Below, in pieces: positions 3,774 through 22,851 of a DNA stretch of 64,000 bases; the first letter of the stretch is position 1, and every line of letters begins with the position of its first letter. The DNA is from a virus. A program made the translations under genes and the position numbers. Where the stretch lies: IMG/VR virus record IMGVR_UViG_3300045988_175656. One strand, 5' to 3'. The notes below the pieces were generated by a model that searched no databases, was not told the DNA's origin, and saw nothing but the letters and a program-made list of their open reading frames with translations.

Positions 3774-3845
3774 TAAATTAGTTTTCATATATGCAAATAT
3801 AACATGAATTATTTATGTTAATAGTTCTTAATTTATTTATATTTT

Positions 3846-5394: not shown

Positions 5395-5471
5395 ATTTTT
5401 AATTGTTATTTCTTATGATACAAAGGTAGGGAAATTTCTATTCCCTACCAAATATTTTATGTTAATAAGAA

Positions 5472-6191: not shown

Positions 6192-6310
6192 AACTTATTA
6201 TCTTTAATTGTTTGATACAAAGGTATGGTTTTTATTTGAATTATGCAAGCATTTATCATATTATTTTGTGTTAATAAAAGTTAATAGATTATAGTTAAAA
6301 TTATATAAAA

Positions 6311-6395
6311 TTAACAAAAATGCTACTGATATGTTGGAGACTATACTCTAATATTTTACTATTACCTATCATTTATTTCTGATAATACAAAGATA
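6311..6395 (-). repeat. promoter-coupled conserved element, copy D
   Basis: -7 box caaagata 6388-6395, core GGAGACTATACTCT 6336-6349, TTAAC 6311-6315 (20-nt spacer). Confidence 0.75.
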
Positions 6396-7158: not shown

Positions 7159-7881
7159 CTAAATTATATTTTCCGTTAAGAATTTTTCCCCTTTTAAGTG
7201 TCTTATGTGCCCCTCATTATAAGTCATTGGTTTGGGATTAATAAAACAACTTTCAAAAGTAAATCTCGTATGTTTTCTATTATCTTGATTTTTATCAATG
7301 TTTTGTGTTTTAATGAATGAAGAGAAATACTGTTGAGTTAAATCATTTATTTTTACATCACCATTAAATTCCATATCAACATTACCATTTTGTGTAATAT
7401 ATTGTGGCATTCCGTTTGGTGCTTTTACCAATACACTATCTTGATTATACTTCTTACATAGATTAATTGCAAGATTTTTTAAAGCGTTAAAATCCTTTTC
7501 ATTTCCATTTCTATCGAAATTTAACACAATGTAAGAAGTTTCATATACTTGTTTTTCATTTTCAGTTCCTTTGTTTTCAATAAAACCACCAAAAACAGGT
7601 ACAAATGAAAATCCAGAATTTTTAATATCATTTAATAATTGTTTAGATAATTTATTATTGGTTTGATTATCATTTTCTCCACGAGAAGCTGATATGATTA
7701 TAAAACCGTTATTATAATGTTTACCTAACAATCTATCAACCGTCATTTCATTTAAAGGCTGTAAAGGAAATGTATTGGTATCACCTACTTCCATATATTC
7801 TTTGATAAGATTATATTGTTTAGCTAAATTAGTATTACATAACTTATCAAATTGTTCATTTATATTTTTTAAAATAGTCAT
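7159..7881 (-). CDS. hypothetical protein
   Basis: ORF track, 240 aa; no motif recognised. Confidence 0.7.
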   Translation of the reverse strand: MTILKNINEQFDKLCNTNLAKQYNLIKEYMEVGDTNTFPLQPLNEMTVDRLLGKHYNNGFIIISASRGENDNQTNNKLSKQLLNDIKNSGFSFVPVFGGFIENKGTENEKQVYETSYIVLNFDRNGNEKDFNALKNLAINLCKKYNQDSVLVKAPNGMPQYITQNGNVDMEFNGDVKINDLTQQYFSSFIKTQNIDKNQDNRKHTRFTFESCFINPKPMTYNEGHIRHLKGEKFLTENII

Positions 7882-7909
7882 AATTTATCTAATTTTATTA
7901 TATAAATAG

Positions 7910-7994
7910 TAGCTCTGATGGGAGTCGAACCCACACGTCTATAAAGACCTCAGTGTTTGAGACTGATGCGTACTACCAATTTCGCCACAGAGCC
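7910..7994 (-). tRNA. tRNA-Leu (anticodon CAA)
   Basis: Reverse complement is GGCTCTGTGGCGAAATTGGTAGTACGCATCAGTCTCAAACACTGAGGTCTTTATAGACGTGTGGGTTCGACTCCCATCAGAGCTA. It has a 7-bp acceptor stem, anticodon loop CTCAAAC, long variable arm (GTCT/AGAC) and T-loop TTCGACT. Confidence 0.9.
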
Positions 7995-9821: not shown

Positions 9822-10047
9822 AAACTTATATGTTTTAATTGTTTAGTGCAAATGTAGGGCATTTTTTTGAAACTACCAAATTTTAGACCTTTTTTTAACT
9901 TACTTTCACACATAATTCATTTTTAGTTAAATTCACATAAAGTATGTCTATTGTTAATAAATCTTAACAACAGTCTATCTCTACATAGGTGCGAAGTTAC
10001 AAAATACTTTTCATATAAGCAAGTGTTTTAACATTTTTTAGTGTTTA

Positions 10048-10127
10048 TTAACTATTAATGTTAAAATATATTGGAGACTATACTTTAGTATTTTACTACT
10101 ACCTTTTCTTTTTCTATATCAAAGATA
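10048..10127 (-). repeat. promoter-coupled conserved element, copy E
   Basis: -7 box caaagata 10120-10127, core 10073-10086, TTAAC 10048-10052 (20-nt spacer). Confidence 0.75.
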
Positions 10128-10312: not shown

Positions 10313-10579
10313 ATGGATAGTTATAAAACAATTGAGAGCAGAGTTTTTGAAACGGTTGAAAATGCCATCAAAAATGATATAAGATATAAAGACTATTTTA
10401 TAATAGTTCGTAGTGATAATTCTTATTATGTAGTTGGCAAAGATATAATTACATTAAATCTTATTTTAGATAAGGCTGTTAAAAATATATTTCGTTTTGA
10501 TAATAGCGAGCTTGACTATATTTTATCATCACTTGTTCGTAGTGGTTTTAGAGTAGCAATTATCGAGAGTGAAAAATAA
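10313..10579 (+). CDS. hypothetical early protein (weak MutS domain-I-like pattern)
   Basis: ORF track; AAAGTTATG start. The C-terminal LDYILSSLVRSGFRVAIIES resembles the MutS [20 protein letters not shown] motif. Confidence 0.65.
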   Translation: MDSYKTIESRVFETVENAIKNDIRYKDYFIIVRSDNSYYVVGKDIITLNLILDKAVKNIFRFDNSELDYILSSLVRSGFRVAIIESEK

Positions 10580-10595
10580 TGTTCCACGTGAAACA
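10580..10595. promoter_or_regulatory. parS site TGTTCCACGTGAAACA
   Basis: Exact match to the chromosomal parS consensus TGTTNCACGTGAAACA. Sits in the 24-nt gap between two early genes. Confidence 0.8.
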
Positions 10596-10603
10596 ATTTA
10601 GTT

Positions 10604-10867
10604 ATGGAAAATAGAGAAGTTAAAGATATTGCAATAATCGCAAATTTATTAGACGGAAAAGTTAAATTCCGTAAAATCGAATGGTCTCAAATATTAATGG
10701 GTAAACATGGAGAAAGTTTTAATGATTTGTACTTTATTGGGAAAAAACATGGAGTATATTTTTATACAAGTAGAGCGAGTTTAGATAGATTATGTTATCT
10801 TAACAATAAAGATATGCCTACTTATGTGGTTTGTGAAGAAAGTAAAAATGTTTTTAAAATAGAATAA
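10604..10867 (+). CDS. hypothetical early protein
   Basis: ORF track; TAGTTATG start 8 nt after parS. Confidence 0.6.
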   Translation: MENREVKDIAIIANLLDGKVKFRKIEWSQILMGKHGESFNDLYFIGKKHGVYFYTSRASLDRLCYLNNKDMPTYVVCEESKNVFKIE

Positions 10868-10916
10868 AAAAAAAATTAACTTGTTTTCAATTGCTATTGA
10901 TTTTAAATTAATACAT

Positions 10917-10953
10917 AATAGTTAGGGCTTGTGAAAGTCTTAACTATTTTTTT
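10917..10953 (+). terminator. bidirectional-looking terminator hairpin
   Basis: AATAGTTAGGGCT/AGTCTTAACTATT stem (2 G-U pairs) plus a T-run; an A-run lies on the other side. Confidence 0.6.
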
Positions 10954-10959
10954 AATTTT

Positions 10960-11042
10960 TTAACTAAAAAAGTTAATATCTGTTGGAGACTATACTCTAT
11001 ATTATTACATATACCTTTTTATTTTTTCTTTATACAAATGTA
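10960..11042 (-). repeat. promoter-coupled conserved element, copy F (opposes flanking genes)
   Basis: -7 box caaatgta 11035-11042, core 10985-10998, TTAAC 10960-10964 (20-nt spacer). Confidence 0.75.
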
Positions 11043-11240
11043 AGCATTATATTTGATATATGCAAATTATTATCTAATTATTTTCTCTAAATTAAGTTTT
11101 ATTAATACAAAAATTGTTTTGTGTTAATGAATAATAAAAGAAAGTGCAAATGTATTGTAGTCTCAAATAAAGTTCTTATATTTGCAGTGTTGAAAGACAA
11201 AAGAATAAATTATATAATCAAACATTTAAAAATTATAGTT

Positions 11241-11921
11241 ATGAAAGAAGTAAATTTTGTATTGTATTTTGGAGCAAACAGAGGTAAAAATGCTTTGAAT
11301 AATCCTCAAACTGTGACAACTCATGCTAATTGTGATGCGGTTACACGTGAAAAAGAAAATCTTTTTAAAGCGATTTATGGCTACTTAGTTGAATTGTCTG
11401 ATATGGGTATCAGTTATGCAGATACGTTTTATCATCCTTCGCAAACTTGTTTTACAGTGTATCAAACAACCTTAGTAGAACCTACTGTTTATGTGAAATC
11501 TTTGGAAAATAACCAAGTAGGAATTTTTGTCAAAGGTTTGGAAAGAAAAACCGATATTGAGTTTAACTTTTTGCTTGATATGGAAATACATATCACCACA
11601 TTAAGAAACCTTTCAAAAGCGGTTTATTTTGCTCTTTTACACGCAAAGAAAGATGCTGCAAATAAAGCTCGTGAAGAAGAAGAAAAACGTCAAAAAGAAG
11701 AAAAAGAACTTTTTGAAATGTTTGTAAATAATTCTCCTTACATACAAATGAACTTGAAAAGTCGTGATGAATTGTTATCACAGATTATTCAGTTGGAACA
11801 ACTTTTGAACAAAAGAGACAGAGAGTTTTTAACTAATTTAAGTGAACACATGGAAAAGTTAAGCGGAAAAGAAACAGCGGAACGTTTTGTTAAGTTCATG
11901 CAAGAAAAGCTAAATTCATAA
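11241..11921 (+). CDS. hypothetical early protein with Glu/Lys-rich coiled-coil
   Basis: ORF track 11121..11921 starts on GTG and contains a TAtaTTTG box. The ATG at 11241 has the ATAGTTATG context. Confidence 0.65.
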   Translation: MKEVNFVLYFGANRGKNALNNPQTVTTHANCDAVTREKENLFKAIYGYLVELSDMGISYADTFYHPSQTCFTVYQTTLVEPTVYVKSLENNQVGIFVKGLERKTDIEFNFLLDMEIHITTLRNLSKAVYFALLHAKKDAANKAREEEEKRQKEEKELFEMFVNNSPYIQMNLKSRDELLSQIIQLEQLLNKRDREFLTNLSEHMEKLSGKETAERFVKFMQEKLNS

Positions 11922-11943
11922 CTTTAAATATTGTTAATTAATT

Positions 11944-11987
11944 AAAGAAAGTCTGCTATCTGTTTGGATATGTCAGACTTTCTTTTT
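11944..11987 (+). terminator. rho-independent terminator
   Basis: AAAGAAAGTCTG (11944-11955) / CAGACTTTCTTT (11974-11985) plus T-run. Confidence 0.7.
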
Positions 11988-12067
11988 ATCTTTGTATATC
12001 GAAAATAAAAAAGTAATAGTAAAATATTAGAGTATAGTCTCCAACAGGTAAAATATAAAACTGTTAA
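11987..12067 (+). repeat. promoter-coupled conserved element, copy G
   Basis: -7 box TATCTTTG 11987-11994, core AGAGTATAGTCTCC 12029-12042, GTTAA 12063-12067 (20-nt spacer). Confidence 0.75.
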
Positions 12068-12139
12068 TGAATGTGAATTTTTTAATAATCATTAACACAA
12101 AAATATATCAAAAAATTAGGTTCGTATTGAAATAAGCCT

Positions 12140-12147
12140 TATCTTTG
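12140..12147 (+). promoter_or_regulatory. -7 box TAtcTTTG
   Basis: Followed by leader ATCAAAATTAAAAACAATAAAGTTATG. Confidence 0.55.
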
Positions 12148-12176
12148 CACATATCAAAATTAAAAACAATAAAGTT

Positions 12177-12428
12177 ATGAAAACAATTCAAGAAGTATTA
12201 AATATTATTGCTACATCTGATTTAATAATGTATGCAGTTAATTACATTGATTTGATAGATGAAAATGTACCTAATACGAATGCAAGTATCGTTTTAAATT
12301 TTAGGTATAGTAATATAAGTTTGTTATTAATGAATGAAATTTTGAATATCATTCTTACAAACGGTTTATCTTATAATATGGATATTGATAATAAGATAAT
12401 GTATATATACTATAAAATAGAAAAATAA
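12177..12428 (+). CDS. hypothetical early protein
   Basis: ORF track; AAAGTTATG start. Confidence 0.55.
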   Translation: MKTIQEVLNIIATSDLIMYAVNYIDLIDENVPNTNASIVLNFRYSNISLLLMNEILNIILTNGLSYNMDIDNKIMYIYYKIEK

Positions 12429-12480
12429 ATTAATTAATATTCTTTAACACAAAATATTTGGTGGCTATAAAAAAAGTCCT

Positions 12481-12488
12481 TATCTTTG
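12481..12488 (+). promoter_or_regulatory. -7 box TAtcTTTG
   Basis: TATCTTTGTAACATCAAAATAAGAG... leader to ATG 12555. Confidence 0.55.
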
Positions 12489-12554
12489 TAACATCAAAAT
12501 AAGAGAAACCAAAACAATTAAAAATATAAATTTAACAATTAAAAATTTGAAGTT

Positions 12555-13469
12555 ATGAAAAAGAATGAACTTAAAGTTAGCGTGATTATCGAAAATGGTA
12601 TGGTAAGAAAAGAAATGGTAGAAATCTTTTACAGTGAAGATTATGATTTGTTAAACAATTTCGATGGCAACCGTTTAGGTAGTGACGAACAAAAAGAAAG
12701 CGGAAATTATTCTGCAAACGAAATAAAGGCTTTTGATAGTCGTGTTAATAAACTTGTTGCATCTATGCAAAAACGTATTGCAGACGGAAAAGAGGGTTTT
12801 GACAAAAATTTTCCTATACTTGTTGCAGTCATAGACGGTAAAAAAGTAAACATAGACGGACAAGGTAGAAAAGCTGCTTGTAAAAGGTTAGGTATCGGTT
12901 TTTGGTATCGTATATTAGACCAAAAGTTTGATACAATGAAAGATTTGATTAATTATACTATCTCAATAAATACCACTGCATCAAGCTGGAAAATTACTGA
13001 CAAATATAAGGCTTGGGCGATTGCAAATGACCGCAAAGACTTGTTAGAAATTATGCTTGATTGTACAAAAAAATTTGACATTGCAGAAAATTTAACATTA
13101 ATGGTTCTGTTCAAAAATCAGAATGTTTGCAAAAAGAATAATTTCAACATTGACAATATTAAAATTAAAACATATACAGAACAAGCAAAAATCGACTTGT
13201 ACGAAATTTTGAATTTCAGACAAGAATTGATTAACGCAATAAAAGGTTTGAGAGATAGTGAAGGACACAAAGTAGCTATCAAGAAAGAAGAATGTTTGCA
13301 CGCTATTGTAAATTTTTATTGCCAAAATAGCAAACTTAATCGCACAATTGCGGTAAAATATGTGGCTGAATATTATCAAAAAAGCGATATGAAAATTTTT
13401 ACCGCCAATACTACATTATTTGAAAAATTTTTAAATCGCTGTGCGCTTAATCATGATGAAAAGATTTAA
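12555..13469 (+). CDS. ParB/sulfiredoxin-fold protein (DGQHR/DndB-like variant)
   Basis: ILVAVIDGKKVNIDGQGRKAACKRLG resembles the ParB N-domain GERRxRAAxxAG / DGQHR motif. Confidence 0.7.
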   Translation: MKKNELKVSVIIENGMVRKEMVEIFYSEDYDLLNNFDGNRLGSDEQKESGNYSANEIKAFDSRVNKLVASMQKRIADGKEGFDKNFPILVAVIDGKKVNIDGQGRKAACKRLGIGFWYRILDQKFDTMKDLINYTISINTTASSWKITDKYKAWAIANDRKDLLEIMLDCTKKFDIAENLTLMVLFKNQNVCKKNNFNIDNIKIKTYTEQAKIDLYEILNFRQELINAIKGLRDSEGHKVAIKKEECLHAIVNFYCQNSKLNRTIAVKYVAEYYQKSDMKIFTANTTLFEKFLNRCALNHDEKI

Positions 13470-13576
13470 ACTTCATAACTTTAATTTTTGATTGAAAAAG
13501 GGAGTACTAATAAAAAAAGTACTTCCTTTTTTACATTTATTAACACAAAATATTTGGTTCGTATTGATAAAAGCAT

Positions 13577-13584
13577 TATCTTTG
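13577..13584 (+). promoter_or_regulatory. -7 box TAtcTTTG
   Basis: Preceded by TTATTAACACAAAATATTTGG and followed by the ATCAAAATAAGAG leader. Confidence 0.55.
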
Positions 13585-13633
13585 TCATATCAAAATAAGA
13601 GATAATAAGTTTAACAATTTAAAAACTAAAGTT

Positions 13634-13828
13634 ATGAATAGAATTAAATTTTTTGGTAGTGTTGGTATGGTAATGTTTATCATGTGGTTGTGCTTTTGGA
13701 TGTTTGGCGGTTGGTATGTGAAAGGTAGTTTTGAAACATTCTCCTATATTTGGTTAGGTGTTTGTGTGGCTGTTTTAGTCGCTGTTAATAGCAAATTAAC
13801 TAAGATACATAAAGAGATAAGCAAATAA
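13634..13828 (+). CDS. small membrane protein (2 predicted TM)
   Basis: ORF track; hydrophobic stretches VGMVMFIMWLCFWMFGGWY and IWLGVCVAVLVAV. Confidence 0.6.
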   Translation: MNRIKFFGSVGMVMFIMWLCFWMFGGWYVKGSFETFSYIWLGVCVAVLVAVNSKLTKIHKEISK

Positions 13829-13884
13829 GTAGATAATTCAAGGTAGGGCAAATAAATAAGCCCTACCAATAAAATATAAAAGTT

Positions 13885-14235
13885 ATGAGTAAAAAATTCA
13901 AGTTATATGCAACAATAAAAGAAAATGTAGGCTATCAGTCTAATTTGAATAATAATAGAGACAGTTATAACAATGCGCTTTTCTTACTTCGTGGAAAAGA
14001 AATTGAGATAGAGACAGACTATTTGTTTCTTAATCAGTTAAACACTGCACCAATTAAAGATATTAGTAAGAACGGTTTAAGATTATATTTTAATGATATT
14101 AAGTCTTTAAGAATAGAAAACCGTACTTTTCGCACTATTAAAATGAGAGTGAAAAAGTTTTATAAAAGTGCTTGGGATGTTGATATTAAAGAACAACAAC
14201 TTAAAGGATATAAACTTTTATTAGGAATTAATTAA
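13885..14235 (+). CDS. hypothetical early protein
   Basis: ORF track; AAAGTTATG start. Confidence 0.6.
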   Translation: MSKKFKLYATIKENVGYQSNLNNNRDSYNNALFLLRGKEIEIETDYLFLNQLNTAPIKDISKNGLRLYFNDIKSLRIENRTFRTIKMRVKKFYKSAWDVDIKEQQLKGYKLLLGIN

Positions 14236-14278
14236 TTCTTATTAACACAAAATATTTGGTAGGTATTGAAAAAATACC

Positions 14279-14356
14279 TACCTTTGTTGTGTAAGAAAAA
14301 AGTAGGGGTAATATTCTAAAGTATAGTCTCCAACAGGTAAAATATAAAATTGTTAA
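14279..14356 (+). repeat. promoter-coupled conserved element, copy H
   Basis: -7 box TACCTTTG 14279-14286 (hairpin 14258-14282 embedded), core AAAGTATAGTCTCC 14318-14331, GTTAA 14352-14356 (20-nt spacer). Confidence 0.75.
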
Positions 14357-14428
14357 TAAATGCAAAAATTTTAATATTATTTAACATAAAAAAGTATTGA
14401 AATGTTTTGGTGTATCGAATATTATTCG

Positions 14429-14436
14429 TACATTTG
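14429..14436 (+). promoter_or_regulatory. -7 box TAcaTTTG
   Basis: Upstream of the parS-containing leader of 14504. Confidence 0.5.
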
Positions 14437-14470
14437 CATATCGGAAATACAGAAATAAGTTATTAACCAT

Positions 14471-14486
14471 TGTTTCACGTGGAACA
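14471..14486. promoter_or_regulatory. parS site TGTTTCACGTGGAACA
   Basis: Exact reverse complement of the 10580 site; lies inside the 5' leader of 14504..15034. Confidence 0.8.
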
Positions 14487-14503
14487 ATTAAAAATTTAAA
14501 GTT

Positions 14504-15034
14504 ATGGGTAATGTTTATTACATGGATAAAGAAACATTTGTTTTGAAAAGCAAACAACAAATTTTGGTTTATAATTACATGATTGAAGATTTAAAAAACA
14601 TTCTTCCAATTGTGCAAAAATTTGACCAAAGGTTTTTAACCAAAAGATTAACTACTGCAATAGAAAAAGTTTTGAAACATTGCATAGTTAGTTTACACGC
14701 TGATAAAATAAAAATCAGCATACAAGGAGAGTTAAGATACGTTAAAGGTGGTGGCTATATTGAATGGGACAGTTACGATATAGATTTAGATGTTAATAGA
14801 CTTGGTTGGTTGTTAAATTCTGAAAAAAGTATTGAAAACATTCAATCGACTATTAATTACTTTGAAAAACAGATTAACGAATACCAACTATGTATCACTA
14901 ACTATGATGAATTTGTTAATAAACGTTTAGAAATTGAAAAACAAATTGAAGAATACCAAAAACTTGTGCCTTATTGTATGCGAACAGGTTTTAGTGTATA
15001 TGGTACTAAATATTATATAGATGAAATAAAATAA
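14504..15034 (+). CDS. hypothetical early protein
   Basis: ORF track; AAAGTTATG start. Confidence 0.65.
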   Translation: MGNVYYMDKETFVLKSKQQILVYNYMIEDLKNILPIVQKFDQRFLTKRLTTAIEKVLKHCIVSLHADKIKISIQGELRYVKGGGYIEWDSYDIDLDVNRLGWLLNSEKSIENIQSTINYFEKQINEYQLCITNYDEFVNKRLEIEKQIEEYQKLVPYCMRTGFSVYGTKYYIDEIK

Positions 15035-15069
15035 AAGTTAAAATATTTGCAAAGGTAGATTTTATTTTC

Positions 15070-15077
15070 TACCTTTG
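15070..15077 (+). promoter_or_regulatory. -7 box TAccTTTG with embedded hairpin
   Basis: AAAGGTAGAttttattttCTACCTTTG. Confidence 0.5.
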
Positions 15078-15123
15078 CATAAACAATAAAAAACTAAAGT
15101 TTTATTTTAAAGCGTTTTAAAAC

Positions 15124-15507
15124 ATGAAAAAATTATTATTTAATACATTATCAAGACAAACAAAAGAGCTTGAAAAAACGGCTAAAAATGCTATTTTAGC
15201 CTTATTAAATGAGATACCAAACAAAACATATCAGACTGATAAAATAGACGAAGAAAGAAATATAACAACCTATGATAATGAAAAATTTGCTTTTGTAGGC
15301 TGTTATATTGATAAAACAAAAGGCACATTTACATATAATCTACATGATGGGTTAAAGTTATTAGGCTATAAAATAATAAATGATAATGATATGATAAGCG
15401 AAATATTATACAATAAACTGTATGAAATAGAGCTTTTTAATATTGATAATATTCAACTATTAAACGTTATAAAATACATCAATGAGATAGAATTTTCTGA
15501 GGATTAA
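15124..15507 (+). CDS. hypothetical early protein
   Basis: ORF track. Confidence 0.6.
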   Translation: MKKLLFNTLSRQTKELEKTAKNAILALLNEIPNKTYQTDKIDEERNITTYDNEKFAFVGCYIDKTKGTFTYNLHDGLKLLGYKIINDNDMISEILYNKLYEIELFNIDNIQLLNVIKYINEIEFSED

Positions 15508-15550
15508 GATTTATTAACTCAAATAATTTGCAAGGTACGGATGTTCTTCG

Positions 15551-15558
15551 TACCTTTG
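15551..15558 (+). promoter_or_regulatory. -7 box TAccTTTG with embedded hairpin
   Basis: TTTGcaaGGTACGgatgttcttCGTACCTTTG, then the canonical leader. Confidence 0.55.
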
Positions 15559-15600
15559 TTGTATCAAAATTAAAGTACTAACAATTAAAAAATTAAAGTT

Positions 15601-15765
15601 ATGAAAAAGTTAAAATCTATTGAGCTTTACAGAAATTTTCCAGTTATAGACCAAAAACAAAATTCTAATTTTATTTTAAAATTATTTCCTTTTTTCTTTC
15701 AGAAATTAAAAAAAACAATGTGGATAGAAATACCTTTTGTTGGCGTTAAAATAGTAATTAATTAA
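15601..15765 (+). CDS. small hypothetical protein (54 aa)
   Basis: Own translation MKKLKSIELYRNFPVIDQKQNSNFILKLFPFFFQKLKKTMWIEIPFVGVKIVIN. Full canonical promoter, leader and AAAGTTATG start. Confidence 0.45.
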   Translation: MKKLKSIELYRNFPVIDQKQNSNFILKLFPFFFQKLKKTMWIEIPFVGVKIVIN

Positions 15766-15817
15766 TATTATTAACGAATAATAACATAGAATATTTGGTA
15801 GGGAACGGAAATTTCCC

Positions 15818-15825
15818 TACCTTTG
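15818..15825 (+). promoter_or_regulatory. -7 box TAccTTTG with embedded hairpin
   Basis: TTTGGTAGGGAAcggaaaTTTCCCTACCTTTG. Confidence 0.55.
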
Positions 15826-15868
15826 TATTATAAGAAATAAGAAGTACTAACAATTAAATTTTAAAGTT

Positions 15869-16084
15869 ATGGGATGTTTAAATGTTAAAAAGTATAACGC
15901 TATGCAAGCGGAACGGGAACAAGAATTTTTAAACAAGTTAGACCGTACAGGATTAACAGAAACAGATATTAAAAAAATGTGTGAAAGCTACTTTCCACGT
16001 ATTAACAAAAATTATGGCTTTGTTACGTTTGATAACAGAACTTGTGCAACTGAAATTCATTGGCACAAAAGAAAACCTTATTAA
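15869..16084 (+). CDS. hypothetical early protein
   Basis: ORF track; AAAGTTATG start. Confidence 0.6.
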   Translation: MGCLNVKKYNAMQAEREQEFLNKLDRTGLTETDIKKMCESYFPRINKNYGFVTFDNRTCATEIHWHKRKPY

Positions 16085-16127
16085 CAACAATTAACTCAAA
16101 TAATTTGGTGGGGAAAGAAATTTCCCC

Positions 16128-16212
16128 TATCTTTGTAATACAGAAAAGGAAACAAAGGTATAAGTAACATTATAGAGTATAGTCTCCAACATATTTAATA
16201 TAAAATAGTTAA
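16128..16212 (+). repeat. promoter-coupled conserved element, copy I
   Basis: -7 box TATCTTTG 16128-16135, core AGAGTATAGTCTCC 16174-16187, GTTAA 16208-16212 (20-nt spacer). Confidence 0.75.
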
Positions 16213-16286
16213 AAAATACTAATTAAATTAATAATTTTTAATACAAAATAATTTGTAAAATACTTGCATAATTGAAATATTATCTA

Positions 16287-16294
16287 TATCTTTG
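16287..16294 (+). promoter_or_regulatory. -7 box TAtcTTTG
   Basis: Followed by ATCAAAATTAAGAAGATTACTAACAATTAAATTTTAAAGTTATG. Confidence 0.55.
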
Positions 16295-16339
16295 TATTAT
16301 CAAAATTAAGAAGATTACTAACAATTAAATTTTAAAGTT

Positions 16340-16624
16340 ATGGCAAATTTCATTTTTCTTAAAAACGACTCTTATAATAGTCCCGTAGTTGCAAAATTGG
16401 CTGTTATTGAAATAGAAGGTGACTATGATTGGTGGCACATTAAAACACGCCCTATCAAGGCTACTAAACGAAATATAGAGCTTTTAAAACTCTATGCAAG
16501 AGAGAACACAACAGATTATATGTGTTGTGAATACGATTGCACAGGTAGCACTAAAAGAACATATAAAGTAAAAGTTAAAAAAGGTAAATGTTGGTTAATT
16601 GAATATGGTAGTGTAGATTGCTAA
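16340..16624 (+). CDS. hypothetical early protein
   Basis: ORF track; AAAGTTATG start. Confidence 0.6.
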   Translation: MANFIFLKNDSYNSPVVAKLAVIEIEGDYDWWHIKTRPIKATKRNIELLKLYARENTTDYMCCEYDCTGSTKRTYKVKVKKGKCWLIEYGSVDC

Positions 16625-16667
16625 CATTTATTAACATAAATAATTTGGTAGGTATCAGAGAAATACC

Positions 16668-16675
16668 TACCTTTG
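16668..16675 (+). promoter_or_regulatory. -7 box TAccTTTG with embedded hairpin
   Basis: TTTGGTAGGTATcagagaaATACCTACCTTTG. Confidence 0.55.
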
Positions 16676-16700
16676 TTTCAAACAATTAAAAAGAATAGTT

Positions 16701-16976
16701 ATGGAAGAAAAAATTAAACAATTTGTTAAACAGCTAAATGAAAAATATCCCGAATATGTAACATCATACACACAAGGGAAAAAGTTTTACAAAATATGGA
16801 GAACATTTGGCGTGCAGAAATGTATCTATTGTTTTGTAGATATGGACGGAAATATTTACAAAGCTGCAAGTATTAACGCACCCGCAAAACATATTAGAGG
16901 GCACATTTCAGAACCTTTTAAAGACAATTGTTGCGGACGTTACGGAATTAAGTATTTAAAAGGTCCTAACTTCTAA
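16701..16976 (+). CDS. hypothetical early protein
   Basis: ORF track. Confidence 0.6.
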   Translation: MEEKIKQFVKQLNEKYPEYVTSYTQGKKFYKIWRTFGVQKCIYCFVDMDGNIYKAASINAPAKHIRGHISEPFKDNCCGRYGIKYLKGPNF

Positions 16977-16987
16977 TTAAGTTTATT

Positions 16988-17027
16988 AACATTTGGTGAA
17001 GTGTAGTAGCCAAATGTTAATTTTTTT
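16988..17027 (+). terminator. bidirectional-looking terminator hairpin
   Basis: AACATTTGG (16988-16996) / CCAAATGTT (17010-17018) plus T-run. Confidence 0.65.
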
Positions 17028-17035
17028 AATATTTT

Positions 17036-17114
17036 TTAACTAAAAAAATATAGATGTGTTGGAGACTATACTCTAAGATATTACTCTTACCTTTTTTATT
17101 ACATTACAAAGATA
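17036..17114 (-). repeat. promoter-coupled conserved element, copy J (opposes flanking genes)
   Basis: -7 box caaagata 17107-17114, core 17061-17074, TTAAC 17036-17040 (20-nt spacer). Confidence 0.75.
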
Positions 17115-17273
17115 AGAATAATTTCTTTAAGTACCAAATATTTGATTAATTTTTATTGTTCATTAACACAATATAGTTTTAAAGTTAATTTTGTGTTAAA
17201 GATAGAAAAATACTTGTTTGGTATTGATATAATTCATACTTTTGTGCATATCAAAATTAAAAGCAATAAAGTT

Positions 17274-17546
17274 ATGAAAGCAAAAAATTACATTCCGCAA
17301 ATTTCTGTTTATTACAGTGAGAGAAACTATAATGACTATAATAACGCTATACAACAAGCTATAAAGCGTTTTAAAGAGTTTTATTCCCGTTTTGATAAAA
17401 GACTACTCACAACAAAGAAAAAAGTTAATGTGAACATAAAAGGGCACATTTTAAATGTGAATATTGACTTTAATAAAGTACATTATTCACAATGTTATGA
17501 GATAGTAAACTATAACGAAATAAAAGGGCTACAAATCAATTATTAA
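17274..17546 (+). CDS. hypothetical early protein
   Basis: ORF track 17142..17546 starts on TTG and spans a TActTTTG box (17237-17244). The ATG at 17274 has the AAAGTTATG context. Confidence 0.6.
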   Translation: MKAKNYIPQISVYYSERNYNDYNNAIQQAIKRFKEFYSRFDKRLLTTKKKVNVNIKGHILNVNIDFNKVHYSQCYEIVNYNEIKGLQINY

Positions 17547-17550
17547 AGAT

Positions 17551-17799
17551 ATGGCACGAAATATAAGTCTTTCAACCGTAGAGAAAATTTTTAATAATTT
17601 AGGTGATGTTAAATTAGAACCTAAAGTTTATAAACAAATTGAAAAAGAATTACGATTTGAGGGGAGAGATAAAAGGTTTGATTTATTTGTTGAGGCTGGC
17701 ACAAATAAATCTATGCTCTTTAAGTTTATGAAAAAAAGATACTATGTTTACTATGATTACAGTATTAATAAGTGGAAAGCTGAATATAATATAAGATAA
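17551..17799 (+). CDS. hypothetical early protein
   Basis: ORF track; begins 4 nt after the previous stop. Confidence 0.6.
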   Translation: MARNISLSTVEKIFNNLGDVKLEPKVYKQIEKELRFEGRDKRFDLFVEAGTNKSMLFKFMKKRYYVYYDYSINKWKAEYNIR

Positions 17800-17917
17800 A
17801 ATAATACTATGTTAATTTATAGTTAAATATAGGAAAATATTTGTTTGGTATTAATTTAATTCTTATCTTTGTACTATCAAAATTAAGGAAATTATTAACA
17901 ATTAAAAAATAAAAGTT

Positions 17918-18424
17918 ATGGCAATATTCGGAAATTTCGTAGGTAAAAAAGATTTAGAATTAACAAACGAAGAAAAAGAAATGTTTATGAATTTCTTCAA
18001 AATGAAACTTTTTAACTATCATAATTGCAATTTTGAAAAGGTATTAACAATTCAAAATGTAAAAGAAGAGTGTTATACAACTTTTACAGATTTTAAATCA
18101 TATTACTTTATTTTCAAGCCAAAAGAAAGTTTAAATGGGAGAAACGTTAAAAGAGATAGAGTTATTGATTTTTCGGGTATTTCTTTTATAATTCGCAAAG
18201 AAAGCGGTTTTTTAGAGATAAAAAATAAAGAAGAAAATATAAATACGCCCGAATTTCAATATTCTTTAAATATCCTTATTCAAGGAAAACAAATAAGGTA
18301 TAAATGTAGAAATATAGAAAGTATTTCTTTAAAAAATTCGTTTCAATTTGGTACTGAATTAAGCGATTTCGATTTTTCAGCTACTTTCTATGACTTATAT
18401 AGAACACTTTATGGCTTATATTAA
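17918..18424 (+). CDS. hypothetical early protein
   Basis: ORF track; AAAGTTATG start. Confidence 0.65.
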   Translation: MAIFGNFVGKKDLELTNEEKEMFMNFFKMKLFNYHNCNFEKVLTIQNVKEECYTTFTDFKSYYFIFKPKESLNGRNVKRDRVIDFSGISFIIRKESGFLEIKNKEENINTPEFQYSLNILIQGKQIRYKCRNIESISLKNSFQFGTELSDFDFSATFYDLYRTLYGLY

Positions 18425-18441
18425 TTAAAAATAAAATAGTT

Positions 18442-18636
18442 ATGAAAGAAAAATATTTTATAGTTGTAAACGAAACAAAGAAAGAAATATACTTTGCGTC
18501 TAAAAATCAATTCAGAGCACAACATTTTACAAAATTCATTTACCAAAAATATGATAAACATGTTTCCTGTGTGCCACGTTATTTGACGCAAAAAGAAATT
18601 GAAATGTATAAAGATATAATCAGTAAGAGAGGTTAA
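18442..18636 (+). CDS. hypothetical early protein
   Basis: ORF track. Confidence 0.55.
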   Translation: MKEKYFIVVNETKKEIYFASKNQFRAQHFTKFIYQKYDKHVSCVPRYLTQKEIEMYKDIISKRG

Positions 18637-18648
18637 AATAAATAAAAT

Positions 18649-18679
18649 GTTAAGAATTTGACTGTTCTTAACATTTTTT
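18649..18679 (+). terminator. bidirectional-looking terminator hairpin
   Basis: GTTAAGAA (18649-18656) / TTCTTAAC (18665-18672) plus T-run; A/T-rich on the other side. Confidence 0.65.
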
Positions 18680-18774
18680 AACTTATTTTTATATATAAAA
18701 AATAAAGCATAACGGAGACTATACTTTAGAATATTACTTCTACTTTTTCCCCCTTTTGGAACACTACAAAGATA
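18678..18774 (-). repeat. promoter-coupled conserved element, copy K (opposes flanking genes; 31-nt spacer variant)
   Basis: -7 box caaagata 18767-18774, core 18714-18727. The nearest TTAAC is 18678-18682 (31-nt spacer). CCG replaces CCAA after the core. Confidence 0.7.
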
Positions 18775-18931
18775 AGAAGAATATTTGAAACTAACAAATT
18801 TATTCCAATGATTAACATTTAATTAACTCTTAAAACGTATTGTGTTAATCAATATTAATAAATCACGTTTTATTTGGTAGATATAAAATTAATTCATATA
18901 TTTGCAATATCAAAATTAAAACAAAGAAGTT

Positions 18932-19402
18932 ATGGAAAAGAATTTAGAGTATTACAGAGAACAATGTCAAGAAATTGCAAACATGATTGCAAATGAAGTT
19001 ACGGACGCAAAAAGTGTTAAAGTTGATTGTGGCGGCTTTTGTCCTTACTTGTGCTTTATTAGAATAGACGCACTTGACAAAAAAGATTATATAAATAATA
19101 TATCAAATAATAGTATCTTTATAGATATTAAAATAGACTTTCAAGAAAATAAATTTGAACTGTTTAGAGATGGACACATTTACCTATCACCAAAGGATAA
19201 AAAAACACCACAATTTAAATATTTAGCTATGCGTGGTATGATTAATATTGCAGAAGAAAAAGGAGTTAAAAAAATGCGTAAAACAAAGCATAAAGACAAT
19301 AAAACAACCGCTAATAAAATAGCTCTTTACTTCAATGAAGTTATGAAAGCTGTAAAAGAATATACAGGCGGTTATCCTTACAGACAAGGAATCGAAGAGT
19401 AA
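18932..19402 (+). CDS. hypothetical early protein
   Basis: ORF track. Confidence 0.65.
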   Translation: MEKNLEYYREQCQEIANMIANEVTDAKSVKVDCGGFCPYLCFIRIDALDKKDYINNISNNSIFIDIKIDFQENKFELFRDGHIYLSPKDKKTPQFKYLAMRGMINIAEEKGVKKMRKTKHKDNKTTANKIALYFNEVMKAVKEYTGGYPYRQGIEE

Positions 19403-19483
19403 TTAACATTTATTAATACAAAAAATTTGGTAGGAATGAAATAATTTCCTACCTTTGTATCAAACAATTAAAGATAACAAGTT

Positions 19484-19702
19484 ATGGATAAAGAAAAAAT
19501 TATTAATAGTATTTGTATAGCTTGCAGAGCTACACAAGGCGGTACTTTAAAGTTTGGTACAGGCGGTTTTGTAGATTTTTCTGTAAGTTGGGATTATCAA
19601 TGTAATTTTGACATTTTTAATCTTAAAACAAAAAAACATCACTTTTGTAGCACTTTAGGCACAGCCGTTGAAATTGTTGAAAAATTATTAACAGAAATAT
19701 AA
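19484..19702 (+). CDS. hypothetical early protein
   Basis: ORF track. Confidence 0.55.
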   Translation: MDKEKIINSICIACRATQGGTLKFGTGGFVDFSVSWDYQCNFDIFNLKTKKHHFCSTLGTAVEIVEKLLTEI

Positions 19703-19745
19703 CATTTATTAACTCTAAAAATTTGGTGATATGAGATAAAAGTCG

Positions 19746-19753
19746 TACATTTG
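19746..19753 (+). promoter_or_regulatory. -7 box TAcaTTTG driving an ORF-free unit
   Basis: Preceded by TTATTAACTCTAAAAATTTGG, the usual upstream element. Confidence 0.55.
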
Positions 19754-19759
19754 TAATAA

Positions 19760-20176
19760 AGAAATACAACTAACAGAAAAAGAGATTAAGTATTAATTTT
19801 AATAATGTCTAAAAATGGAAACAAATAAGCCACCGCCCTAAAAAGGTTATTTAAATTTGATAATATAAGATAGAATAATTTAATAGCTACGAAAACTAAC
19901 AAGGTACGCAAGTTTAAAGAGTAAAAAGTTTTAGAACGTACTGCATTAAGCGAAAAAGCTATGCCACCACAGTATTAAGTTTATAACATTATAATATATA
20001 GAGTAATTTAATTTATATTTAATTTTAACTTTCCGCTGTTTGCGGACTAAAAACATAAGTATGCACTTAATTAGAGATAAGACCATATAAAAATTATATG
20101 TAATATAGAATGAATTTATAGATTAAGAAAATAAGGCAAAAGCTCTGATAATACCGTCATTTATCAGAGCTTTTTT
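19760..20176 (+). ncRNA. candidate non-coding RNA of about 420 nt (function unknown)
   Basis: Canonical promoter at 19746-19753 and terminator at 20141-20176. The longest plus-strand ATG ORFs I found encode no more than 9 aa. Nested complementary segments: ATAGCT 19883-19888/AGCTAT 19957-19962, GTACG 19904-19908/CGTAC 19937-19941, TCCGC 20032-20036/GCGGA 20042-20046. Confidence 0.4.
20141..20176 (+). terminator. bidirectional-looking terminator hairpin
   Basis: AGCTCTGATAA (20141-20151) / TTATCAGAGCT (20161-20171), flanked by an A-run and a T-run. Confidence 0.75.
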
Positions 20177-20187
20177 AATTACAGTTT

Positions 20188-20271
20188 TTAACATTTTTTA
20201 TAAGTACGTGACGGAGACTATACTTTAAAGTTTTAACCTTACCTCTTTGTTTTTCTTACACTACAAAGATA
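20188..20271 (-). repeat. promoter-coupled conserved element, copy L (opposes flanking genes)
   Basis: -7 box caaagata 20264-20271, core 20213-20226, TTAAC 20188-20192 (20-nt spacer). Confidence 0.75.
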
Positions 20272-20428
20272 AGGATAATAATTCAATCTACCAAACATTA
20301 TTTCAGTTTTAACATTACTTTAACACAAAATACTTAATATGTTAATATTGTGTTAAAGATATGATATTACTTGCATATATGAAAAATAACATATATATTT
20401 GCAATATCAAAATTAAAGTAATAAAGTT

Positions 20429-20869
20429 ATGATTGGAAAAGATAAAAGTTACATTAAAAGTAACGAGATTACAGAAATAAAACTAAAAGCGTTTAGAAGC
20501 TCTTTTTCAAAGGATATTATTCTTTGTGGGGAAAGTATTACAGATAGACAAAAAGTATCTCAAAAGTGCTTAGATTATCTCTGTGATAAATTTAAAATTG
20601 AAAAGGTGAAACTAACAGTTTTAAATAAGCCACAAAGAAAAAAAGCAAATGGCAAAACTTTAGGTTTTTATACTGTTGGGAGAAATCATATCACAATATA
20701 TAATCTAACAGCCACCACACAAAAAACTGTATCTATAAAAACTTTTTACGATACATTATTACATGAATTTATGCACCACTATGACTATAAAGTTTTAAAA
20801 CTTGAAAACAGTCTGCATACAAGCGGTTTTTATCAAAGAATAAGCGACTTAAAAAATAAATTGCAATAA
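20429..20869 (+). CDS. putative SprT-like zinc metallopeptidase
   Basis: HExxH motif in TLLHEFMHHYDY; AAAGTTATG start. Confidence 0.55.
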   Translation: MIGKDKSYIKSNEITEIKLKAFRSSFSKDIILCGESITDRQKVSQKCLDYLCDKFKIEKVKLTVLNKPQRKKANGKTLGFYTVGRNHITIYNLTATTQKTVSIKTFYDTLLHEFMHHYDYKVLKLENSLHTSGFYQRISDLKNKLQ

Positions 20870-20965
20870 AAACATTTATTAACACAAAAAATTTGATTAT
20901 TAAAGAAAAACACCTTATCTTTGTAACATCAAAATAAGAGAATTAACAATTTAAAAATTAAAGTT

Positions 20966-21091
20966 ATGGAAATAGAATTATTAAAGAAAGCAATTTATAT
21001 CAGAACTAAAAAGTTTTCAATTTGGTTCGGATGGCTATCATTCTCAAAAAATGATTGTTTTATACCAACATTCTATTTTAATAAGTTGTAA
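20966..21091 (+). CDS. small hypothetical protein (41 aa)
   Basis: Own translation MEIELLKKAIYIRTKKFSIWFGWLSFSKNDCFIPTFYFNKL; full canonical promoter, leader and AAAGTTATG start. Confidence 0.4.
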   Translation: MEIELLKKAIYIRTKKFSIWFGWLSFSKNDCFIPTFYFNKL

Positions 21092-21110
21092 CATTTTAAA
21101 TTTTAAAGTT

Positions 21111-21425
21111 ATGTTATATAGTGGTGAAACCGTTTTTTTAAAAAGTACTGATAATGCAAAAGCAAATGTACTCTGCAAGCAAGTTAATAAACTGACAGCA
21201 AAAAAATTATATGATAAGGGAGTTAAAATTTGGTTACATCCTTGCAATTTAACGCTTAATAACGTTTGGCAAGTGCCTTATCATTTCCAAAAAAGCGAAA
21301 CAAATACTGAATGTTTTGATAGCCTTGTTAATTCTTTTAGGTGGTATAATTGTGACAGACAGAGAGGTAAAAGAATTATTTTCTTTGCCGAATGTGATAA
21401 AATGGGAAAATTACTTCATTCTTAA
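21111..21425 (+). CDS. hypothetical early protein
   Basis: ORF track 21051..21425 trimmed to the ATG with the AAAGTTATG context (MLYSGETVFL...). Confidence 0.55.
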   Translation: MLYSGETVFLKSTDNAKANVLCKQVNKLTAKKLYDKGVKIWLHPCNLTLNNVWQVPYHFQKSETNTECFDSLVNSFRWYNCDRQRGKRIIFFAECDKMGKLLHS

Positions 21426-21436
21426 AAACTGACAGT

Positions 21437-21583
21437 ATGACAAACATATTATATATAGGGCTATTTACAGCCCTTTTAATAGCACTTTTTTTCTTTGCAA
21501 TGAAAGTATTATCTAAGCAAAGAAAAGCTAACAGAGAGGAAAAAACTCGCTTTATTTGGGCGAATATAAGATATAAAACATAA
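21437..21583 (+). CDS. small membrane protein (48 aa)
   Basis: Own translation MTNILYIGLFTALLIALFFFAMKVLSKQRKANREEKTRFIWANIRYKT; one TM helix. Confidence 0.35.
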   Translation: MTNILYIGLFTALLIALFFFAMKVLSKQRKANREEKTRFIWANIRYKT

Positions 21584-21742
21584 CTTTAGATTTATAGAAC
21601 TTAATTTTGATGAAAAAATGCACCCGTTTGTGAAAATAGGTGCATTTTGCTTTTATTAACACAAATAATTTGTATATGATAAATAAATCGCTTATCTTTG
21701 TAATATCAAAATAAGAGTACTAATAATTAAAATTTTAAAGTT

Positions 21743-21928
21743 ATGATACATTTTAATTCTCATCCAGAAGTAATAAATATTACAGCAGCCACTAATGCTA
21801 ATCAGATAACAAAAGAATACTATGATTTTTTAGTAGGAGAAATTAATAGAGGTACAATAAAAAAAGCTGTTTGTCGTATTGAGAATGAAGTATTTGGTAC
21901 AGTATCTTATCATTTAATATCATATTAA
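21743..21928 (+). CDS. hypothetical early protein
   Basis: ORF track; AAAGTTATG start. Confidence 0.5.
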   Translation: MIHFNSHPEVINITAATNANQITKEYYDFLVGEINRGTIKKAVCRIENEVFGTVSYHLISY

Positions 21929-21978
21929 CATTCATTAGTGATAATAATTTGTATATTCAAAATTAAAAATTTAAAGTT

Positions 21979-22251
21979 ATGGATAATAATTTACAAGAAT
22001 TTAGATTTAATACAGGTGTAAAAGTATATAGTTTTTGTCCTCCAGTTCCTTGTGTGGGTGAATATCAAATTGTAGACGGAAACGGAGTTAAAATAATTTT
22101 GTTTTATTGTACTGATGTTCCGAAAAATGCTACTTTCTTATTTGCTTGCGATACGCCTAATTTAGACAAAGCAAAAGAAAATAATGTGATAGTAAGGGAA
22201 ATTATAAAAGGTGGCTTATGTTCCAAATATGCTTATTTTAAAACTTATTAA
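21979..22251 (+). CDS. hypothetical early protein
   Basis: ORF track; AAAGTTATG start. Confidence 0.6.
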   Translation: MDNNLQEFRFNTGVKVYSFCPPVPCVGEYQIVDGNGVKIILFYCTDVPKNATFLFACDTPNLDKAKENNVIVREIIKGGLCSKYAYFKTY

Positions 22252-22338
22252 CACAAAATATTTGGAACATATCAAAAAAATACCTATCTTTGTAATATCA
22301 AAATTAAAGAAGTTACTAACAATTAAAAATTTAAAGTT

Positions 22339-22539
22339 ATGAAAAAATTTCAATTAAGTTTTCAAGCAAGAAAGATTAATGCAATCGGAATTGTTTACAA
22401 TAACTCTGCAACTGTGGTTGCAGATAATTTACAAGAAGCAACAAATTATCTTTACACAATCTTTGAGCATATAAAAGATATAAAAATTGTGAAAAAAACT
22501 AAAACAAATATGGAAAAGGGAATTGTTAAACATAGTTAA
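22339..22539 (+). CDS. hypothetical early protein (last gene of plus early arm)
   Basis: ORF track; AAAGTTATG start. Confidence 0.55.
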   Translation: MKKFQLSFQARKINAIGIVYNNSATVVADNLQEATNYLYTIFEHIKDIKIVKKTKTNMEKGIVKHS

Positions 22540-22545
22540 AAAAAT

Positions 22546-22561
22546 TGTTCCACGTGGAACA
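22546..22561. promoter_or_regulatory. parS site TGTTCCACGTGGAACA (perfect palindrome)
   Basis: Matches the parS consensus half-sites on both arms. Lies 7 nt after the stop of 22339..22539 and abuts the GC-rich island. Confidence 0.75.
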
Positions 22562-22639
22562 CCCCCTACATGGGGGCTACCCCCGTAACCCCCCACTCCG
22601 TTCCCCCTACCTTGAAGGGGTGGGTAAAACAGGGAACGG
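22562..22639 (+). other. GC-rich structured island (C-runs on plus / G-runs on minus)
   Basis: Hairpin CCCCC (22562-22566)/GGGGG (22572-22576). An 8-bp stem CCGTTCCC (22598-22605)/GGGAACGG (22632-22639) encloses CCCTACC..GGGTGGG. The minus strand carries four runs of at least 5 G. Confidence 0.6.
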
Positions 22640-22820
22640 TCTGGAAAATGAAATTTTTTTGGTCCAGAAAATTTTTATTTTTCGTAAATGCCTAAAAATC
22701 TAATTTTAAATTTCACATTTTTTAAAATAAAAAATGGCTTTTCAAAAAAATTTTCCAGAAAATTTTTTAGCTTTTTAAAAAAGGTATTATTTTATTTTTG
22801 CTAATTTATAAAAAAAAACG

Positions 22821-22828
22821 TATATTTG
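22821..22828 (+). promoter_or_regulatory. -7 box TAtaTTTG (class II, CGTATATTTGCA type)
   Basis: acgTATATTTGCAaaaa, 24 nt upstream of ATG 22852. Confidence 0.55.
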
Positions 22829-22851
22829 CAAAAAAAAAATGAGATTATATT

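Follow-up and report, generated by a model that had tools for sequence, protein, structure and literature searches.

Why would a phage carry short, promoter-driven sequences that contain no gene and point against every gene around them? We addressed this question in IMG/VR virus record IMGVR_UViG_3300045988_175656, a 64,000-nucleotide (nt) stretch of phage DNA that was analysed over its full length and is referred to below as the window. The element in question is a repeated intergenic unit that combines a promoter, a small hairpin, a conserved tail and a second short box. An earlier note on this DNA described four of its twelve copies as closed promoter-to-terminator cassettes directed against their neighbours. 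With the exception of how the terminators were described, the observation holds and has firm statistical support. Our answer is a tentative one: each unit may be a self-contained early transcription module, with its RNA as the product.

Promoters, core and RNA structure of the units

The core of the unit, GTATAGTCTCC, is present in 12 copies in the window, all of which fit TARAGTATAGTCTCC; a search for the 11-mer with up to one mismatch allowed is expected to return 0.34 by chance. A thirteenth match to this search, at 36497, has one mismatch and is not a unit. Nine units are on the minus strand (2091, 3871, 4934, 6336, 10073, 10985, 17061, 18714 and 20213) and three on the plus strand (12032, 14321 and 16177); they are named here by these positions (u2091 and so on). 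Eight of the 12 run in the direction of the surrounding genes, and the other four (10985, 17061, 18714 and 20213) are antisense within a block of plus-strand genes.

Upstream of each unit lies a promoter of the Bacteroidota type, TTTG-N20-TAnnTTTG. This pattern has 37 exact matches in the window versus 1.38 expected, nearly all of them in the first 25 kb, and the single near-exact case among the units is u10073, with a CTTG -33 box. All units thus have their own promoter, as is expected of a stand-alone bacterial small RNA (sRNA) gene.

Read along its own strand, a unit comprises the promoter, a purine-rich leader, A-R-R-G-G, one strand of a 5-base-pair (bp) stem, the loop, the closing strand, the tail, a spacer and a GUUAA box. 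The distance from the -7 box to the stem ranges from 12 to 43 nt across units. The stem opens with U-A or C-A and carries a conserved, GNRA-like hexaloop (G/A-U-R-A-N-A). It is followed by a conserved and unstructured tail (RAGUAUANUYUCC) and a semi-conserved nWYAYRU, and the GUUAA box lies exactly 20 nt past UCC in about 70% of units.

All stem positions are paired in the 12 window copies, with compensatory changes at three pairs. In 57 distinct sequences from IMG/VR relatives, 285 of 285 scored stem positions are paired and double changes occur at four of the five pairs, and in a mutual-information scan of 140 distinct sequences the four variable stem pairs alone stand out. The stem wobbles in these 140 sequences comprise 30 G·U or U·G versus one A·C. 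Because the wobbles are strand-specific, the structure forms in the RNA of the unit's own strand and, on this sequence evidence, it is selected on that transcribed strand. Conserved structure and sequence together with the lack of an open reading frame (ORF), a further mark of stand-alone sRNA genes, are both found in the units.

The segment 3' of the hairpin is no more structured than shuffled sequence. Other foldings were considered and rejected: a second hairpin made of core and spacer has an energy no better than shuffled sequence, and a GTTAA...TTAAC hairpin has non-complementary flanks (0.434 versus 0.435), the TTAAC arrays belonging to the next promoter.

The eight co-oriented units extend over both gene blocks. 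On the minus strand, u3871 (3826-3917), u4934 (4889-4980) and u6336 (6293-6382) are recognized by model score and promoter match, u2091 (2044-2137) by model score with its promoter at 2145-2176, and u10073 (10028-10119), at the head of the leftward gene block, by model score with its CTTG box. On the plus strand, u12032 (11996-12087), u14321 (14285-14376) and u16177 (16141-16232) are again recognized by model score and promoter match, and the last of these forms a convergent pair with u17061 around two genes.

Four units that oppose their neighbouring genes

From 10313 to 24729, every long ORF is on the plus strand, and it is in this block that the four minus-strand units reported in the earlier note are found, at 10985, 17061, 18714 and 20213. 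The only minus-strand matches to TTTG-N20-TAnnTTTG in the block are the four that drive these units. Unit u10985 (10985-11013, minus strand, 72.4 bits) comprises a hairpin at 10998-11013 (TATAT-GTAATA-ATATA) followed by GA and GTATAGTCTCC, with its GTTAA box at 10960-10964, exactly 20 nt past the core. Its promoter at 11035-11066 (minus strand; -33 TTTG, 20-nt spacer, -7 TAcaTTTG) is an exact pattern match and is conserved in relatives. The best-scoring unit of the window is u17061 (17061-17089, minus strand, 83.1 bits), which has a hairpin at 17074-17089 and the core, an exact promoter match at 17107-17138 (minus strand) and a GTTAA box at 17036-17040 (minus strand) that is preceded by a U7 run. 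In u18714 (18714-18742, minus strand, 62.6 bits; exact promoter match at 18767-18798, minus strand), the spacer to the GTTAA box (18678-18682) is 31 nt, not 20. The fourth, u20213 (20213-20241, minus strand, 75.9 bits; exact promoter match at 20264-20295, minus strand), has the hairpin loop TTAAAA and a GTTAA box at 20188-20192. The -7 boxes stand back-to-back with the next plus-strand promoter, again as proposed earlier, for example 17107-17114 on the minus strand versus 17237-17244 on the plus strand.

The hairpins into which these units run had been described as flanked by an A-run and, on the opposite side, a T-run, and as able to terminate in both directions. We folded the hairpins downstream of the four reversed units on both strands, and this description applies to two of them. 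The terminator-like hairpin at 18644-18677 has U-rich tails on both strands, and the one at 20138-20174 (AAAAGCTCTGATAA...TTATCAGAGCTTTT) folds at -17.5 kcal/mol on the plus strand and -17.2 on the minus strand, with U-rich tails both ways. It does not apply to the hairpin at 10917-10948, the terminator of the plus-strand gene 10604-10867, which on the plus strand has a U7 tail and reaches -17.3 kcal/mol. Its two G·U pairs turn into C·A when it is read from the minus strand, leaving a fold of just -6.5 kcal/mol; there is no U tail in that direction, and the hairpin is a poor terminator there. Nor does it apply to the hairpin at 16985-17021, which ends the plus-strand gene 16701-16976: the symmetric stem is kept on the minus strand (-13.3 kcal/mol) and is followed there by UAAUAAAC instead of a U run. 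With two-way terminators convincing only at 18.65 and 20.14 kb, closed cassettes are demonstrable for two of the four reversed copies only. The proposal that bidirectional terminators define the RNAs holds for these two copies and is weakened by the family at large, in which a canonical own-strand terminator is present in about 20% of convergent units. In a relative with 98% identity (L373), the 20138-20174 hairpin has as its loop the exact reverse complement of the window's, the part between the stem arms being flipped.

The RNAs predicted for the reversed units are 114-122 nt long, within the range of roughly 90-130 nt foreseen in the earlier note for discrete ORF-free transcripts, and the sole frame in them is a non-conserved one of 23 codons in the 20.2 kb copy. 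The covariance-model scores of the reversed copies are as high as those of the co-oriented copies, with no sign of decay. The stem of a u10985 orthologue is TAGAT/GTCTA where the window has TATAT/ATATA, a compensatory change, and the orientation of the reversed units is kept in relatives about 77% identical to the window. By these comparisons, the reversed copies are genuine, are driven by promoters and evolve under selection on their RNA, and the unit is independent of a downstream ORF.

These observations decide among the roles that had been considered for the units. A simple 5' leader role had been disfavoured from the geometry alone; since reversed copies are conserved, high-scoring and structurally constrained, with stem covariation between orthologues, an obligatory 5'-leader role for a downstream ORF is ruled out. 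Two options had been offered in its place, a stand-alone RNA gene or a DNA-level site whose orientation does not matter. The strand-specific covariation (30 G·U versus 1 A·C) rules out the orientation-free site, and the stand-alone RNA gene is the better of the two and can be applied across the family as a whole.

Distribution of the units and readings of their function

No Rfam model matches a unit: the only match above the gathering threshold in the window is a tRNA-Leu, and at E <= 5 nothing in 10900-20450 overlaps a unit. No units were found in GenBank phages, and neither the unit core nor comparable elements were found in the literature. A host-encoded copy gained no support from a 15-mer scan of bacterial genomes, which gave, among the matches listed, only chance matches in coding DNA. 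The units are widely distributed in metagenomic data. A degenerate-pattern scan of all IMG/VR detected 29 stretches on 12 contigs of 42-380 kb, and a metagenome scan detected at least 120 stretches with a unit, human-gut assemblies included, on contigs of up to 398 kb. The covariance model identifies 179 units in 500 kb of those metagenome stretches.

Of 243 distinct units, 159 have a co-directional downstream ORF and 45 are directed at the 3' end of a convergent one, and 39 are unassignable; convergent units thus make up 45 of the 204 assignable ones (about 22%) and co-oriented units 78%, in counts that are not phylogenetically independent. A separate -7 box precedes the next ATG after 87% of the co-oriented units, so the unit with its promoter is an extra module and not the gene's only promoter. 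A canonical hairpin and U tail on the unit's own strand are found in 4% of co-oriented versus 20% of convergent units, and a U run in the spacer in 61% of convergent versus 24% of co-oriented units. Orientation is identical in relatives that are 77-99% identical, with no sign of flipping, and this stability argues against a flipping promoter.

One early plus-strand gene, 18932-19402, recurs in the neighbourhood of units. In distant phages a convergent unit follows its homologues at five loci, and the gene often lies between two units that point towards it. The protein, the only early one in common with distant phages that carry units, has 59 homologue clusters and belongs to no Pfam family. 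It was considered as a partner of the unit and set aside: the AlphaFold model is confident (predicted local distance difference test, pLDDT, 93) with no PDB fold match, and one homologue is encoded in a phage with no unit within 10 kb.

The one function that fits all copies most simply, and our tentative choice, is that of a hairpin and tail RNA made as a product, most likely as a platform for protein binding. The host-type Bacteroidota promoter of each unit would give rise to an early RNA, the conserved hairpin and tail would be bound by a host or phage protein, and the many copies with their own promoters would supply a high dose of RNA early in infection. Such an RNA could be a decoy or a component of a ribonucleoprotein, independent of any downstream ORF. 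The reversed copies would be the clearest case: their RNAs, ORF-free and about 115-120 nt in length, would extend into the neighbouring gene's terminator hairpin. Read-through would be harmless from a co-oriented unit and would be curtailed by U runs or terminators in a convergent one; the enrichment of both features in convergent units is as expected if the 5' part alone matters and antisense read-through is costly. The unit RNAs would presumably accumulate, bind a protein and have their 3' ends where we predict them.

Several points weigh against this proposal. A Rho-independent terminator of its own, expected of an sRNA gene, is present in 4% of co-oriented and 20% of convergent units, and two of the four hairpins in the window are poor terminators on the minus strand. 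The co-orientation of 78% of assignable units with an ORF would also be explained by a role in cis, and the family counts are subject to the phylogenetic dependence noted above. A simple decoy does not account for the fixed 20-nt distance to GUUAA, which spans an unstructured spacer. No partner protein was found, the early ORFs having no informative Pfam or PHROG matches, and Pfam and PHROG scans of about 90 ORFs returned nothing RNA-related in the early region.

It is also conceivable, if unlikely, that the unit is a decoy of a host RNA normally recognized in transcription or translation, the best candidate being the rrn antitermination leader. A dozen strong early promoters would then load the cell with mimics, and these would sequester Nus-type factors or a host defence protein that targets RNA. 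In a weaker lead, the tail UCUCCAA would copy a tRNA anticodon loop and serve as bait for an anticodon nuclease. The phage itself encodes a tRNA-Leu(CAA) gene (7909-7994, minus strand), and its anticodon arm AGTCTCAAACAC and the unit tail AGTCTCCAACAC are alike at 11 of 12 positions, a likeness that was spotted post hoc and is of uncertain significance.

A role in cis deserves more weight than this and is a serious rival to the main proposal, although we consider it doubtful. The unit could be a promoter-proximal element of the nut/put or rrn-leader type, in which the hairpin is boxB-like, the linear box boxA-like and GUUAA boxC-like. A factor assembled on RNA polymerase would confer termination resistance or pausing and allow read-through of early-gene terminators; the reversed copies would stay closed until the factor appears, and their antisense RNA would then shut off upstream early genes. 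The anatomy and the position just past the promoter fit this account, as do the GNRA-like loop, which recalls boxB, and the embedding of each early gene's terminator in the next promoter. The tail GUCUCCAACA shares the boxA pattern (G, pyrimidine run, AACA), a likeness of pattern only, whereas RAGUAUA, its most conserved part, has no boxA counterpart. Bacteroidales rrn leaders from the same metagenome have a hairpin UCG-UGAAA-CGA and, four nt on, GAUCUUUGAACAG, yet covariance model R1, run with filters off, finds no match at E <= 10 in the sense strand of such leaders. Enterobacterial rrn leaders have their boxC at a fixed 18-19 nt past boxA (PMC10250234). The fixed 20 nt of the units parallels this boxA-boxC spacing, and no other idea explains a fixed spacing over unstructured RNA. 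The co-orientation of 78% of assignable units with a downstream ORF points the same way, but an element of this type should always lie upstream of its genes and terminators and run in their direction, and 4 of the 12 window units and 45 of the 204 assignable family units are convergent. These 22% face the 3' end of a gene and are nevertheless conserved and under stem selection. Their enrichment in U runs and terminators ill suits a polymerase that ignores terminators, and the gene's own promoter comes directly after 87% of the co-oriented units. The window yielded no N-, Q- or NusG-like protein.

Two further explanations are less likely. The more plausible of them, itself improbable, takes the units for mobile or recombinogenic cassettes akin to the promoter-early stem-loops (PeSLs) of T4-type phages, which would shuffle early genes or spread selfishly in either orientation and whose RNA would have no function of its own. 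PeSLs have been described as composite terminator/promoter motifs in ORFan-rich early regions (PMC2839356; PMC4122927). The units lie in an early region of this kind, are found in both orientations and constitute a repeated early promoter and stem-loop composite in a hyperplastic region. Nine of the 48 breakpoint clusters between relatives fall in or near units (for example at 5018 and 6447) versus 9.1% expected, about a twofold enrichment, but breakpoints are mostly at ordinary, unit-free promoters. Orientation is stable between diverged relatives, and the compensatory stems, the invariant loop and tail and the G·U asymmetry indicate selection on RNA structure and not recombinational homogenization. 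Such cassettes describe the surrounding architecture well without explaining the selection at the RNA level. Very improbable, in our estimate, is a DNA-level element, either a protein-binding or origin-like site for which orientation is irrelevant or a Bacteroides-type invertible promoter caught in the OFF state. The occurrence of both orientations would suit it, and short inverted TTAAC/GTTAA boxes flank promoter and unit; these repeats, however, span just 5-8 bp, and every promoter in the region includes the TTAAC box. Read in reverse complement, the unit looks like a promoter whose spacer is too long (TTGG, 26 nt, TACCTTT), and the best, non-significant match of the model in host DNA is antisense to an rrn P2 promoter. 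Against this, the stem covariation with its 30 G·U versus 1 A·C needs a single strand of fixed polarity, the promoter-to-hairpin distance varies from 12 to 43 nt, and orientation is identical across relatives 77-99% identical, where an inverton would differ.

The P2 match just mentioned lies in a Bacteroidales stretch (L417, 274-367, plus strand; E = 0.56, non-significant) and aligns AAGTATATCCTCCAAATA with the unit's AAGTATAGTCTCCAATA. There are hints that the units may have arisen from an inverted promoter-terminator composite.

Several other functions were tested and rejected. Against a guide RNA or CRISPR mini-array, a 17-mer from the spacer of u6336, the most complex of the spacers, gives only chance-level matches in IMG/VR; within the window, the spacers are complementary to nothing outside their own loci, and the sole 19/20 match, at 1721, is low-complexity sequence with a TTAAC box. 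The stems differ between copies, where a CRISPR-like array would have identical repeats. Antisense pairing to the conserved 5' untranslated regions (UTRs) of early genes gives duplex energies no better than shuffled sequence (z from -1.4 to +0.6). Mimicry of the 16S 3' end or anti-Shine-Dalgarno sequence was dismissed: there is little similarity, and Shine-Dalgarno sequences are absent from the later genes.

Genomic setting and comparison with known systems

The window is AT-rich DNA of a large phage of the Bacteroidota type whose relatives include human-gut metagenome assemblies. No DNA-level similarity to it was detected among GenBank phages, and its helicase is about 37% identical to proteins from large Bacteroides phages. 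Two IMG/VR contigs of 215-220 kb are 96-98% identical to the window, and further IMG/VR relatives (221 kb and 380 kb) are 77-95% identical. Small genes form a leftward block from about 9.8 to 0.3 kb and a rightward block from 10.3 to about 28.8 kb. The early block encodes an S-adenosylmethionine (SAM) lyase (7159-7881, minus strand) and a radical-SAM protein (5472-6191, minus strand). Past the small-gene blocks are genes for tail-fibre-like proteins, a UvrD-type helicase interrupted by two inteins with homing-endonuclease domains (40071-44054, minus strand), a thymidylate synthase, an NAD-dependent DNA ligase and a ClpB-like ATPase. The window further encodes an RNA ligase adjoining an NMNAT-like cytidylyltransferase (44771-46224, minus strand), a NUDIX hydrolase adjoining an ion-transport protein (61490-63039, minus strand) and a deoxynucleoside monophosphate (dNMP) kinase.

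The early genes share further signals. Most have a nearly invariant 5' UTR, ..ATCAAAATTAAAG..ACTAACAATTAAAWWTTAAAGTTATG, located 25-45 nt upstream of the start codon (for example 15556-15600, 16295-16339 and 22294-22338) and lacking in later genes, which may be a phage-specific signal for translation initiation. In the composite terminator/promoters, the terminator hairpin of the upstream gene lies within the 20-nt spacer between the -33 and -7 boxes and its U tail is the -7 TTTG; these are found at 14255-14286, 15794-15825, 16104-16135, 16644-16675 and 19426-19457 on the plus strand and at 2145-2176, 2453-2484 and 5421-5452 on the minus strand. In the early blocks, the sense strand has about twice the expected number of TTAAC boxes (seen at 11085-11125, 17163-17210 and 20316-20358 and as arrays downstream of co-oriented units). 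Upstream of promoters they are arranged in phased arrays with a spacing of 10-14 nt, and divergent promoter pairs have them in between as palindromes (TTAACACAA...TTGTGTTAA). A putative transcription factor may bind there. Two ORF-free stretches of about 700 bp each are found at 19703-20428 and 1300-2046. The former carries a promoter of its own (19722-19753) and extends as far as the terminator 20138-20174; it folds with a z-score of only -1.5 and has no Rfam match.

If the unit RNAs are real, this phage clade uses about one third of its early promoters for a single small structured RNA that is absent from Rfam and from sequenced phage isolates, which would be an exceptionally large commitment to a non-coding effector. 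The reversed copies amount to a natural experiment indicating that the module needs no downstream gene. The motif, of about 45 nt, would offer a compact handle on the takeover of Bacteroidota transcription by phages, and it could be used as a sequence marker for the clade in metagenomes.

Among known systems, the lambda nut sites and rrn leaders resemble the units in their promoter-adjacent hairpin with a variable stem and a conserved GNRA-like loop, after which come a conserved linear box rich in pyrimidines and, at a constant distance of about 18-20 nt, a second box. Unlike these leaders, the units have no detectable sequence homology to the host rrn leader, are present in a dozen or more copies per genome and face a convergent gene in about one in five assignable cases, and no N-like protein was found. 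The lambda 6S RNA (pR'-tR') and oop RNA are discrete and ORF-free, each the product of a strong phage promoter with a terminator close downstream. Some RNAs of this type are antisense to neighbouring genes, and they are single-copy with dedicated terminators; the unit family, in contrast, is multicopy, shares one conserved structured motif and mostly has no terminator of its own.

Phage-encoded trans-acting sRNAs are non-coding RNAs proposed to act on host or phage factors (review PMC12197685). Unlike them, the units have no base-pairing target that we could find. RNA decoys such as RNA anti-CRISPRs and pseudo-ToxI rely on copy number and a conserved protein-binding motif. The units differ from these in being dispersed, in having their own promoters and in bearing no resemblance to CRISPR repeats or to the tandem repeats of type III antitoxins.

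The surrounding architecture is close to that of the T4-type PeSLs (PMC2839356, PMC4122927), which are likewise short intergenic cassettes present in repeated copies. They too join a strong early promoter of host type to a stem-loop and cluster in early, hyperplastic regions rich in ORFans. The promoter-embedded terminators of the window are their direct analogues. The units differ from PeSLs in that breakpoints are only weakly enriched at them and about 22% of the assignable copies point against genes. To the PeSL-like composite they add a transcribed module, consisting of a covarying hairpin, an invariant tail, a fixed spacer and a second box, that is under selection at the RNA level.

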